Virus record (IMG/VR): IMGVR_UViG_3300032322_000568
Location: 1-55,822 of that record
DNA: 55,822 nt
From: a virus
Taxonomy: Duplodnaviria > Caudoviricetes
Direction: 5' to 3' (one strand)
Part shown: positions 7,633 through 55,822 of the stretch, in pieces
How positions within the stretch are numbered: position 1 is the first letter of the stretch
How the letters are laid out: every line of letters starts with the position of its first letter
Translations under genes and position numbers: made by a program
The notes under the pieces: model-generated
Databases searched by the model: none
What the model was told of the DNA's origin: nothing
What the model saw: the letters and a program-made list of their open reading frames with translations, nothing else

Positions 7633-8037
7633 TCACCACCCTGGGCAATTCCAGCGCTTCATTGAAGCCCTGGCTCGAGATCCACGCTCAGACTTGCGAG
7701 CCACTGGACCCATGCGTGCGCAAAATGAATCACGCCTTGGACCTCCTTGGGGCTGTGGAGCCTTCAGGTTTGATCCTGTTTCTCGGTTGTACTTCGCTCT
7801 ACCCTTGGCGGTAAGACCCGCGCCCTGATCTGCCGGAAGCTTCTCACCGCGGCCAATCGCAAGGCTCGGACCGCCGTCTTTAAGCCGTTCAGGAAGTTTT
7901 GCATACGATTTCCCTTTCACGTTGGACTGCGTAAACTCTGCAGCCACATCAGGTCGAATGCCTACTTTCTTGGCAAACTTGGGATTGTTCTCAGCCGCTT
8001 TCATCAGCCGGAACTGCGCTTTAGTCTTGGCAGGCAT
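7633..8037 (-). CDS. basic two-module protein (MPAK..AQ.RLM module + GLTAKGR...SFCARM module)
   Basis: Two recognisable small phage modules joined by an LKDGG linker. Confidence 0.65.
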   Translation of the reverse strand: MPAKTKAQFRLMKAAENNPKFAKKVGIRPDVAAEFTQSNVKGKSYAKLPERLKDGGPSLAIGRGEKLPADQGAGLTAKGRAKYNRETGSNLKAPQPQGGPRRDSFCARMGPVARKSERGSRARASMKRWNCPGW

Positions 8038-53842: not shown

Positions 53843-54051
53843 ATCCCCAGCAGCTTCTTAACGAACATGGCCGCAACGCCTGGCCCAAGCAAGACAGCGG
53901 CGATCGTGATGTAAAGCAAGTGCTCAATGCGCTGCATCCGTTTTGAGCCGTCGGCAAAACGCTTTTCGATATTTTCGTATCGTTGTGCGCAAACTTGCTC
54001 GTGGCTTGTCAAACGCGCTTCCACTTCCGGGATAACCTTTATATCGTGCAT
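53839..54051 (-). CDS. coiled-coil + TM protein (HE..CA.RY family)
   Basis: RLTSHEQVCAQRYE.I..R...M.RIE plus C-terminal TM. Confidence 0.75.
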   Translation of the reverse strand: MHDIKVIPEVEARLTSHEQVCAQRYENIEKRFADGSKRMQRIEHLLYITIAAVLLGPGVAAMFVKKLLGI

Positions 54052-54554
54052 GTTAAGTGATACCTTCTTTTTGCCTGCAAGTACACCTGATGCGCTTCGT
54101 GAGGGGTGTCGAAATAACCAAGGTGCTTTTTCTTGCCATCAACCTGAATGTACGAACTGAACCGATTGGTGCCCTTAAAGAATGACACGCCCATAAAACC
54201 CGTGGAATTGTGCCTTGGCGGCCTTATATGATTGTGAATATTTTGCTGGTGGGTAACTTCTCGCAGGTTTGATAACCTGTTGTCAAGCCCGTTGCCATTT
54301 ATATGATCGATCTCTTTGGGCATGTAGCCATGGACGAAAAGCCATGCAAGTCGATGAGCGCGATCTCGATAACCGCCAAAACCAATCTGGATGTAACGCC
54401 CATTAATCACGCCGACCCTGGACCCTGGCTTTTTAGTGCCAGACGCCTTAATTCTCTGAAACTCGCCGGTCAAAGGGTCGTACGTCAAGTGCTGCATTAA
54501 CGCTTGACGCTTCGCTTCATGGACCGACAAGCGCTTATCCAAGTCGTCGCTCAT
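54039..54554 (-). CDS. HNH-AP2 homing endonuclease
   Basis: L.YDP.TG.F, AHRLAW, IDHINGNGLDNRLSNLR, STG..GV, HLGYF.T..EA...Y. Confidence 0.93.
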   Translation of the reverse strand: MSDDLDKRLSVHEAKRQALMQHLTYDPLTGEFQRIKASGTKKPGSRVGVINGRYIQIGFGGYRDRAHRLAWLFVHGYMPKEIDHINGNGLDNRLSNLREVTHQQNIHNHIRPPRHNSTGFMGVSFFKGTNRFSSYIQVDGKKKHLGYFDTPHEAHQVYLQAKRRYHLTCTI

Positions 54555-54556
54555 GA

Positions 54557-54874
54557 TTAGACACCTGAAGCAGTAAAGCCACTTAAGGAGACGCCTGCTG
54601 TACCAACATCAAGCGTAATGGTTTGCAGGGGTTCAGCAGTGGGGTCGATGATGGGTGCTTCAGACTTGACCCACGCCTCACTGGACTGAGACCAGTTCCA
54701 CACAAAGCCAGCCTCATCCGCAGGCTTCACAGGGCGAACAACCCATCCCGGTGGGAACCACCAAACAACTTCCTGACCGTCTGCTGCCGTGGGTGGCTCA
54801 GGCACTTCAATCCAACCATCAGTGTTATCCGTTTGCGGCTTGGGTATTGATCCGTTTTTGGAGTAAAGCATCAT
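54557..54874 (-). CDS. Trp/Pro-rich fibre-associated (chaperone-like) protein
   Basis: AAGGA RBS, GW.EV..PP and W.W....W pattern. Confidence 0.65.
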   Translation of the reverse strand: MMLYSKNGSIPKPQTDNTDGWIEVPEPPTAADGQEVVWWFPPGWVVRPVKPADEAGFVWNWSQSSEAWVKSEAPIIDPTAEPLQTITLDVGTAGVSLSGFTASGV

Positions 54875-54902
54875 TGATTCCTTGTTGCGTTATACTTTTC
54901 TA

Positions 54903-54948
54903 CCACGGCTGATGAGTCATTGTGACGAAACGCTTTTGCGTCCCGTGG
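54903..54948 (+). ncRNA. type I hammerhead ribozyme
   Basis: CCACGG-CTGATGA-GTCA ttg TGAC-GAA-ACGC tttt GCGT-C-CCGTGG: complete core and three stems, GUC cleavage after 54942. Confidence 0.93.
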
Positions 54949-55088
54949 AGTTTCCCGTGCGGGGGAATAACTGGAAGCCTGCCTGATCCAGCCTAAGCAC
55001 CTTCTCGTTGAGGGTTTTTAGGCCGTGGGTGTGCAACGGATCAGGTCCAGCACACATCTTGCCCTGCTGACAGATCGGAAAGACGGTC
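54943..55088 (+). ncRNA. structured RNA 3' of the hammerhead, unknown family
   Basis: Nested stems CCTGATCC/GGATCAGG, GCCTAA/TTAGGC, ACCTTC/GAGGGT, terminal GATCG-GAAAGA-CGGTC; G-U pairs favour the + strand. Confidence 0.65.
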
Positions 55089-55089
55089 A

Positions 55090-55822
55090 TCATTGATCCT
55101 GCCATTGAGATGTTTGTGGCGTGAAGTTTGCGGTGTATCGGGCAATGCCTTTAGTGATGCGGAAATCGTCAAGATAACCATAGTAAGCATAAATAGAACT
55201 TTGAGTATCAACAAAACCGCTTATTCGCAGGTTTGAATCAGACCAGTTTGTTGAGTTTGAAAGTGTTCCTTGAGAAACACCATTTACATAAATAGTAATC
55301 GTTGATCCAGAGCGAACTACCGCTATATGTTGCCACTGATTATTAACCCTTCCGCCTACGGTAAGTAGTGTGTAAGGGGACAGTCCGTAACCAAAAGCAA
55401 AACTAGATGTTCCGCTATTTGCAAAGAACATACCGTTGCCGCTTGTGTTGCTTGATCTTGTATCAAAAATGTTTCTTGAATTACTTGAAGTATCTAAGCA
55501 ATACGCCCAAAACTCAACGGTAAAGTTACCCGTCCCAAAAGCTACTGATTGATTGTTTGGAGCGGTTAATGAATCGCCGTCCCCATCAAAGTACATCGAA
55601 GCCCCACCAAACTTTGACTGCGTGGTACTGATCTGCGCGTTTGCCACCGTTTCAAGGTCGTTCATCATCGCGTTGTCAATGATGCCGCCATTGGTGTAGG
55701 AGCAGAGCAACTCAACATCGCCCGAAGTTGCACCTTGAGAAGATGTGGTCAGTGGCGCACTTGTCGGGGTAAATATTGATGTGCCATTAGTCGTGCTACT
55801 GGTTTGATAACTTGTTGGGATC
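55090..55822 (-). CDS. LamG repeat tail fibre protein, C-terminal part (enters from window end)
   Basis: Frame stays open upstream of 55710 to the window end; DNAMMNDLETV, G[ND]FTVEFW, GYLDDFRITKG.ARY. Confidence 0.85.
   Translation of the reverse strand, partial: IPTSYQTSSTTNGTSIFTPTSAPLTTSSQGATSGDVELLCSYTNGGIIDNAMMNDLETVANAQISTTQSKFGGASMYFDGDGDSLTAPNNQSVAFGTGNFTVEFWAYCLDTSSNSRNIFDTRSSNTSGNGMFFANSGTSSFAFGYGLSPYTLLTVGGRVNNQWQHIAVVRSGSTITIYVNGVSQGTLSNSTNWSDSNLRISGFVDTQSSIYAYYGYLDDFRITKGIARYTANFTPQTSQWQDQ

Follow-up and report, generated by a model that had tools for sequence, protein, structure and literature searches.

The window analysed here covers positions 1-55,822 of the IMG/VR virus record IMGVR_UViG_3300032322_000568 (55,822 nucleotides (nt); Duplodnaviria, Caudoviricetes). 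Near its end, the plus strand carries a type I hammerhead ribozyme (54903-54942), with cleavage predicted after C54942, followed by a conserved RNA domain of about 125 bases (54943-55067) with five helices, including two pseudoknots. The comparative evidence establishes the family, its fold, its coupling to the hammerhead, its circular permutations, its genomic contexts, and its insertion into the window phage. The domain is a family not in Rfam, and in the best reading it is probably a processed, trans-acting structured RNA that binds a conserved partner. What bacterial and phage hammerheads do has, to our knowledge, long been an open question. In this case, the hammerhead is coupled to one particular partner RNA with an elaborate fold, which provides a concrete, testable cargo. 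That RNA is conserved across phages or prophages assigned to three or more bacterial phyla and is also present in an assembly from a fourth phylum.

Covariation and fold of the RNA domain

The original prediction, made from the sequence alone, had placed a structured RNA at 54943-55090, downstream of a hammerhead. The sequence is as described there, and a canonical hammerhead, read from the sequence, precedes it with its cleavage site after C54942. Covariation among homologues had been proposed as a check. For this, a covariance model was built from 26 aligned sequences with nested helices only, leaving out helices B and F, and the full-length matches were then realigned. Across 44 distinct sequences, 33 of the 40 pairs had changes on both sides, and 95.0% of the cells were paired. 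Sliding the partners by 1-3 columns reduced the paired fraction to 39-43%, and none of 500 shuffles reached the observed value. A plain MAFFT alignment made before the model gave 22 of 40 pairs and 91.4%. The pseudoknots B and F, which lay outside the model, were paired in 98.9% and 100% of the cells, respectively, with up to five pair types at variable positions. The homologues, in short, conserve base pairing through compensatory changes.

The fold consists of two H-type pseudoknots, formed by helices A with B and C with F. Helix A (54950-54955/54973-54978) covaries at five of six pairs, and helix B (GCGGGG/CCCUGC; 54959-54964/55062-55067) at three of six. Helix C (54981-54989/55038-55046) has eight of nine covarying pairs, and helix F (GUGUGC/GCACAC; 55029-55034/55050-55055) four of six. 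Helices D/E (54991-55003/55011-55023) form a dispensable capping hairpin in which all 13 pairs covary; the hairpin is missing from locus L172 and opened in the permuted forms described below. Most of the helices had been anticipated: the long stem CCTGATCC/GGATCAGG is helix C, GCCTAA/TTAGGC and ACCTTC/GAGGGT are helices D/E, and the proposed pseudoknot GTGTGC (55029)/GCACAC (55050) is helix F. Two proposed pairings fell away. The two sides of the TTCCC/GGGAA hairpin belong to other covarying helices, namely A and the pseudoknot B, and the CTGGA/TCCAG pairing is specific to the window and has no covariation support.

About 30 unpaired bases are nearly invariant, namely CGYGGA, GAAUAACU, CGUGG, AA, and AUCUNG. 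The 5' tail CCGUGGA (54943-54949) is also the 3' strand of hammerhead stem I, and its CGYGGA is kept even in forms lacking a hammerhead. The invariant GAAUAACU (54965-54972) lies inside helix A, which also encloses the 5' strand of helix B; CGUGG (55024-55028) stands directly 5' of a helix F strand, and AUCUUG (55056-55061) is a conserved single strand. Helices A, B, C, and F with the invariant strands make up a core of about 95 nt, the parts that recur everywhere. The motif scans described below left some of these strands free: AAYAACU was present in loci found through the 3' half alone, where the pattern left it unconstrained, and CGUGGGU was invariant in both loci found without requiring it.

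Downstream of the core, UGACA and the hairpin GAUCG-GAAAGA-CGGUC (55068-55088) form an accessory module of one subclade. The terminal hairpin of the original prediction recurs there (55073-55088 in the window): eight distinct sequences carry four different stems around a constant GAAAGA loop. In L027 (minus strand, at 7847 and 8036), CCCCG-GAAAGA-CGGGG with a UGACA lead flanks a hammerhead-RNA unit on both sides; a tandem-array remnant would look like this.

The window's own lineage points to the strand. Among six close variants, all seven changes in paired columns keep the pair, several through G-U. Since G-U intermediates work on the plus strand only, these changes support a plus-strand RNA, as had been argued from the wobbles in the window. 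The window alone cannot be told from chance. Single-sequence folding of 148 nt gave minimum free energy z-scores of -1.35 (plus strand) and -0.96 (minus strand), significant on neither strand, and the bare hammerhead core pattern matched the window twice against 1.49 expected, which is the chance level. The case therefore rests on comparative evidence. A CRISPR-repeat-like hairpin at 54949-54978 was considered and rejected, as Rfam CRISPR-DR58 matched only at E = 4.5 and covariation gave it no support.

Homologues were collected in several ways. Under sensitive settings, blastn against 50,697 phage records gave four matches at 69-71% identity: the Pectobacterium phages Pappous and Taid, the Dickeya phage Setonix, and the T7-like Enterobacter phage SDFMU_EhYP. 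The viral collection was scanned with three motif patterns that freed different parts from constraint, giving 34, 44 (10 new), and 32 (2 new) loci, and a metagenome scan returned 54. A genome scan gave 38 pattern matches. Model score and visual inspection identify six of these as real; L052, L053, L058, and L075 have the appearance of chance matches in coding sequence and were rejected. The hosts in the genome scan include Bordetella trematum, a Mycobacterium assembly, two Clostridia assemblies, and an Armatimonadetes assembly. Overall, the RNA occurs in phages and prophages assigned to Proteobacteria, Clostridia, and Mycobacterium, and also in the Armatimonadetes assembly. A different family member is carried by a 1390-nt marine metatranscriptome contig (run X16, contig 7), which matches the window at 54926-54980 only and whose loose ends resemble an L023-type hammerhead and helix C.

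Hammerhead coupling and circular permutations

The window's hammerhead was read from the sequence as the stem I 5' strand CCACGG (54903-54908), the core CUGAUGA (54909-54915), a 4-base-pair (bp) stem II (54916-54926), GAAA (54927-54930), and a 4-bp stem III with a UUUU loop (54930-54941), followed by GUC. The conserved core CUGANGA...GAAA and the NUH cleavage triplet are thus present. In 25 aligned homologues (of 27 distinct sequences), the core columns do not vary, and the cleavage site reads GUC or GUA. Their hammerhead stems have compensatory changes in 7 of 14 pairs, with 93.7% of the cells paired against 17-52% in slid controls. At the Rfam gathering threshold, no hammerhead match was found in the window or in 10 loci; the best score, from an E. 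coli copy, was 24.7 bits against a threshold of 34, and the window's hammerhead gave a misregistered type III match only (21.1 bits).

The 149 pattern matches were classified into 115 distinct units. In the window's order (type 1), the hammerhead lies directly 5' of the domain in 39 of 40 distinct units, which, with the strong covariation, agrees with the predicted hammerhead-matured, plus-strand phage noncoding RNA. A circularly permuted order, in which the hammerhead stands between the helix B 3' strand and CGYGGA, was found in 19 distinct units, and 11 further distinct units are permuted without a recognisable hammerhead. One unit, L192, represents a third permutation: its hammerhead is type III, and stem I is capped by the whole domain. 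Contig ends cut 11 units, and 34 stayed unclassified. L018, L172, and L202 among these are real variants by eye; the remainder, nearly all from the genome scan, are without every other part.

In the permuted units, the RNA begins at CGUGGGU and ends in the helix C 5' strand, so that helix C is the pairing of the RNA's two ends; its sequences differ among units. Ten of the 11 permuted units parsed pair helices F and B at 6/6 positions, with a helix A of 4-5 bp and a helix C of 8-10 bp. All forms are one circular order with the opening at one of three places: the link joining helix B to stem I, the D/E loop, or the loop of stem III. The claim that the RNA is released by the hammerhead is too simple, as the permuted nick lies inside the RNA. 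Decayed hammerheads stand beside an intact domain in L040, L197, and L209.

Some further sequence features accompany the hammerhead. The stem II loop is AGUAACGC in six of the eight hammerhead-bearing units among 10 permuted units parsed (L041, L042, L044, L067, L071, and L076) and varies freely in the window's arrangement; AGUAACGC may make a tertiary contact that only the permuted form has. The motif CCAACAAC(U/C)A precedes stem I in L023, L034, L171, and L191, and in other copies the similar CAACUAAC stands after helix B, in agreement with a circular arrangement of the parts. L001 (2440-2490) and L024 (~980-1030) share about 25 nt (CCGGA..CGTAACC.GCAC..AATTA) directly before the hammerhead, a stretch that may be a phage-polymerase promoter.

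Insertion of the cassette and genomic settings

In the window phage, the element is a mobile insertion, with precise empty sites in close relatives and a duplicated target. The inserted cassette (leader, hammerhead, RNA domain, and 3' hairpin) occupies 54870-55088 on the plus strand. Its 219 extra bases are flanked by an imperfect 12-nt repeat: the left copy, ATCATTGATTCC (54870-54881), is, on the minus strand, the ribosome-binding site and ATG of a 105-amino-acid gene, and the right copy, ATCATTGATCCT (55089-55100), contributes a minus-strand ribosome-binding site and ATGATG heading a 62-amino-acid open reading frame (ORF). The junction CAATGGCAGGATCAATGATGCTTTACTCC is uninterrupted and identical in 10 related contigs, where the stop codon of the tail-fibre gene and the following ATG overlap. 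One metatranscriptome contig has the empty form, joining 54868 to 55088 and skipping exactly 219 bases. Relatives of the 105-amino-acid gene were found in 70 viral loci, eight of which carry the element (seven whole and one cut at a contig end); a few of the 62 others are too short upstream to judge. No mobility enzyme is encoded within the 219-bp cassette. Across the family, the flanks are not the same from lineage to lineage; a small cassette with an RNA gene moves among unrelated phages, inserting at different places.

The 62-amino-acid ORF on the minus strand (54917-55105) was rejected as a gene. It starts at a ribosome-binding site and ATG because the insertion target was duplicated there, and it matches no Pfam family; it is a by-product of the insertion. 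A conserved minus-strand frame had been named as an observation that would speak against an RNA. The length between fixed landmarks, taken modulo 3, fell into all three classes (23, 15, and 6 of 44 homologues), and no consistent period-3 signal or conserved reading frame was found among the 44.

Pfam matched three nearby ORFs: a Laminin_G_3 tail-fibre-like gene (ending at 55090), an HNH_3 endonuclease, and a phage lysozyme. The 105-amino-acid ORF and three further intervening ORFs had no Pfam match. The HNH_3 endonuclease gene (54039-54554, minus strand) is two genes away from the insertion, with the lysis genes on one side and the tail-fibre region on the other. TATACT (54891-54896, plus strand), 6 nt before the hammerhead, might at a guess be a -10 element; its spacing resembles that in L160, where a TTGACA-17-TAGAGT promoter ends 7 nt before the hammerhead. 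The window flanks would form a closing stem of only -9.7 kcal/mol, which is no counterpart of the 18-bp stem of the enterobacterial copies.

Elsewhere, the element runs in the same direction as its flanking genes in most loci. It is co-oriented with its neighbours in Pappous and SDFMU_EhYP, the two annotated records examined, being intergenic in the latter and overlaid by an annotated 38-amino-acid hypothetical ORF in the former. Among 20 neighbour genes in 15 loci, only Q-like antiterminators recur as a family, in lambdoid contexts. In lambdoid prophages, the element sits between a Q-like antiterminator and the holin. E. coli CFSAN061763 has, in this order, a PR'-like promoter (11 of 12 positions), a terminator-like hairpin, an 18-bp stem around the hammerhead and domain, and the holin, and no annotation over the element; the hairpin, with its U run, was judged by eye, and the terminator scan listed none. 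The element proper is present in 15 of 5426 complete E. coli genomes, between antiterminator Q and holin, and a count of 282 genomes was discarded as an artefact of the flanking lambdoid stretch in the query. In the T7-like phage, the element lies between the capsid-region terminator and a tail tubular gene. This copy is 95.4% identical to the lambdoid prophage copy, and SDFMU_Pec, a relative of the carrier phage, is without the element.

The 18-bp outer stem ACAACAGGTAAGAGCAYTG/CAGTGCTCTTTCCGTTGT that encloses the hammerhead and domain in enterobacterial copies (compared in L002, 2460-2680) surrounds a different, 41-nt insert in phiKDA1 (L163, ~460-560); it may be an RNase III-type processing stem with exchangeable cargo.

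The hammerhead-free RNA occurs mostly in phage transfer RNA (tRNA) arrays. With association taken as a same-strand tRNA within 400 nt, a tRNA accompanies 9 of 39 type 1 units with a hammerhead, 1 of 19 permuted units with a hammerhead, and 6 of 11 permuted units without one. These last six adjoin tRNAs and are all among the eight units with a 5-8-nt linker; some hammerhead-free units begin 2 nt past a tRNA end. The Pappous element lies just upstream of a tRNA. L197 has its own TTGACA-17-TAGAAT promoter, the RNA, and then a terminator-like hairpin with a U run (by eye). Two other predicted RNAs lie near copies of the element: ARAGORN calls a permuted transfer-messenger RNA (tmRNA) about 165 nt downstream on the same strand in L021 (6387-6770, minus strand), and a Betaproteobacteria-1 small RNA (RF02932, 102.7 bits) is found about 2 kb away on the same phage contig in L022 (5089-5209, minus strand).

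Interpretation and comparison with known systems

We propose that the plus strand is transcribed in the window phage and that the type I hammerhead would cut after C54942, leaving a 5'-hydroxyl on CCGUGGA. The next ~125 bases would then fold into two interlocked H-type pseudoknots (A with B, C with F), with the D/E hairpin as a cap and the ~30 conserved unpaired bases gathered in the core. In other settings, the ends would be set by tRNA-processing enzymes within tRNA arrays or by the element's own promoter and terminator. As judged from sequence, the cis hammerhead, the tRNA-processing enzymes, and the promoter with terminator appear to be three interchangeable ways to set the ends, which suggests a compact product RNA that is stable and free and is produced late in large amounts. 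The mature RNA would act in trans late in infection, binding a protein or small molecule conserved across bacterial phyla; its retention in phages of distant phyla makes a universal binding target probable.

Several observations weigh against a processed, trans-acting RNA. All eight ORFs within 2.5 kb of the element in the window are on the minus strand, antisense to it, and a sigma-70 consensus scan around it found no plus-strand promoter. Contigs from RNA libraries cover the element in four runs from three studies; they attest presence only, and not strand, ends, level, or cleavage, and their stretches without coverage carry no meaning. The nick predicted for the hammerhead lies inside the fold in 19 permuted units, which simple end-trimming does not explain. 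Finally, an antisense stop-free stretch of at least 53 codons occurs in 10 of 17 representative elements, though its frame is not conserved.

The last point bears on whether the pattern is a minus-strand gene for a 58-62-amino-acid protein, or chance overall, to which we give hardly any credence. Stop-free antisense frames are common among the homologues, and the ORF at 54917-55105 has a ribosome-binding site and ATGATG; that start, however, is the duplicated insertion target, Pfam has no match, the indels fall in all three classes modulo 3, and the changes are compensatory for RNA pairing. Moreover, as most elements are co-oriented with the flanking genes, such an ORF would be antisense to them. 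It is also improbable that the element is a cis-acting 5' module, in which the hammerhead removes the triphosphate leader and the 5'-hydroxyl knot shields a late message or tRNA precursor from 5'-end-dependent decay. The element does come first after the late-leader terminator in E. coli prophages, and just downstream of it stand a tail gene in the T7-like phage and a tRNA in Pappous. Nothing co-oriented lies downstream in the window, however; RNase P would cut the element from what follows in tRNA arrays, and L197 ends at a terminator.

A tentative, minority view is that the domain is a new RNA class with its own chemistry or sensing: a ribozyme of a new kind, or else a partner that responds to a ligand or protein and makes nicking by the hammerhead conditional. 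The former, a new catalytic RNA class (self-cleaving, ligating, or other) travelling with the hammerhead, is unlikely on its own. The compact double pseudoknot, the ~30 invariant junction bases, the optional capping hairpin, and the three circular permutations are hallmarks of small ribozymes, and self-cleaving ribozymes associate with one another in phage-like regions, according to PMC5737381 and PMC6765202. Yet no cleavage site can be inferred in the domain, the processing of flanking tRNAs already fixes both ends in tRNA arrays, and no Rfam ribozyme model matches the domain. The latter, a regulated ribozyme in which the domain senses a ligand or protein and decides whether stem I forms, is very improbable. 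The double use of CGYGGA as stem I 3' strand and part of the domain core, the single circular order kept in all three permutations, and the domain serving as the stem I loop in L192 would all suit it, but 11 units have no hammerhead, and L040, L197, and L209 keep an intact domain beside a decayed one. The nick inside the permuted forms and the two roles of CGYGGA nevertheless keep both the new ribozyme and the domain-controlled hammerhead under consideration. If either were true, the three conserved UGG-containing strands would form an active or binding site, the CCA end of tRNAs would be one target worth considering given the tRNA-array setting, and the mobile cassette would be a vehicle by which phages spread an RNA that catalyses or senses.

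The processed, trans-acting RNA is therefore the reading that we carry forward. The density of invariant unpaired bases is like that of ribozymes and riboswitch aptamers, which makes the RNA a strong candidate either for novel RNA biochemistry or for a new RNA-based move in phage-host conflict. As the element in E. coli prophages lies directly behind a late promoter, ordinary laboratory genetics, RNA mapping, and structure probing are applicable.

The Rfam search called for by the original prediction leaves the domain without a family, and the prediction's view that the cargo matches no tRNA and no ribozyme class already known stands. At gathering scores, Rfam 15 matched nothing on the domain in the window or in 10 diverse loci. 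At E values up to 10, three copies drew scattered unrelated models (E of about 4 or more), none recurring between loci. ARAGORN found no tRNA or tmRNA in the window and none on the element in 27 loci. A full-text literature search returned no description of the RNA, although motif lists in supplements (e.g., RAGATH candidates) might include it.

The 5' module shares the core, the NUH site, and three covarying stems with the type I hammerhead of Rfam RF00163. It differs in that the 3' strand of stem I is here a conserved part of another RNA, and in that the hammerhead also appears in type III form with the RNA domain as its stem I loop. Phage PaP3 reportedly carries a hammerhead, and the covariance model found no match in it. 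The twister ribozyme resembles the domain in its double pseudoknot, its naturally occurring circular permutations, and its proximity to hammerheads. In contrast to twister, the domain has no evident cleavage site, its conserved bases differ, and Rfam twister models did not match at E values up to 10.

The drum, skipping-rope, DUF3800-I, and FuFi-1 motifs are described in PMC5737381 as highly conserved, pseudoknotted, often phage-linked, and unlikely to be riboswitches; they have 3' terminators, and all but FuFi-1 have an associated protein gene. These motifs are in Rfam, yet they did not match the domain, and they are not described there with a hammerhead or tRNAs. A hammerhead association of the drum motif was considered and dropped, being contradicted by the same text.

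Two further likenesses are in phage tRNA regions. Phage T4 rnaC and rnaD are, by annotation, small non-tRNA RNAs within a phage tRNA array and matured with it, as would be the case here; they were rejected as homologues, since the best covariance-model score in the T4 region was 7.1 bits and lay off rnaC/rnaD. Theta ribozymes, which resemble that of hepatitis delta virus, flank phage tRNAs, as PMC10879173 reports. As in those ribozyme-flanked tRNAs, a small, predicted self-cleaving ribozyme stands here beside a probably stable RNA, often in tRNA regions; here, however, the cargo is not a tRNA, and the ribozyme is a hammerhead placed 5' of the cargo or inside it.

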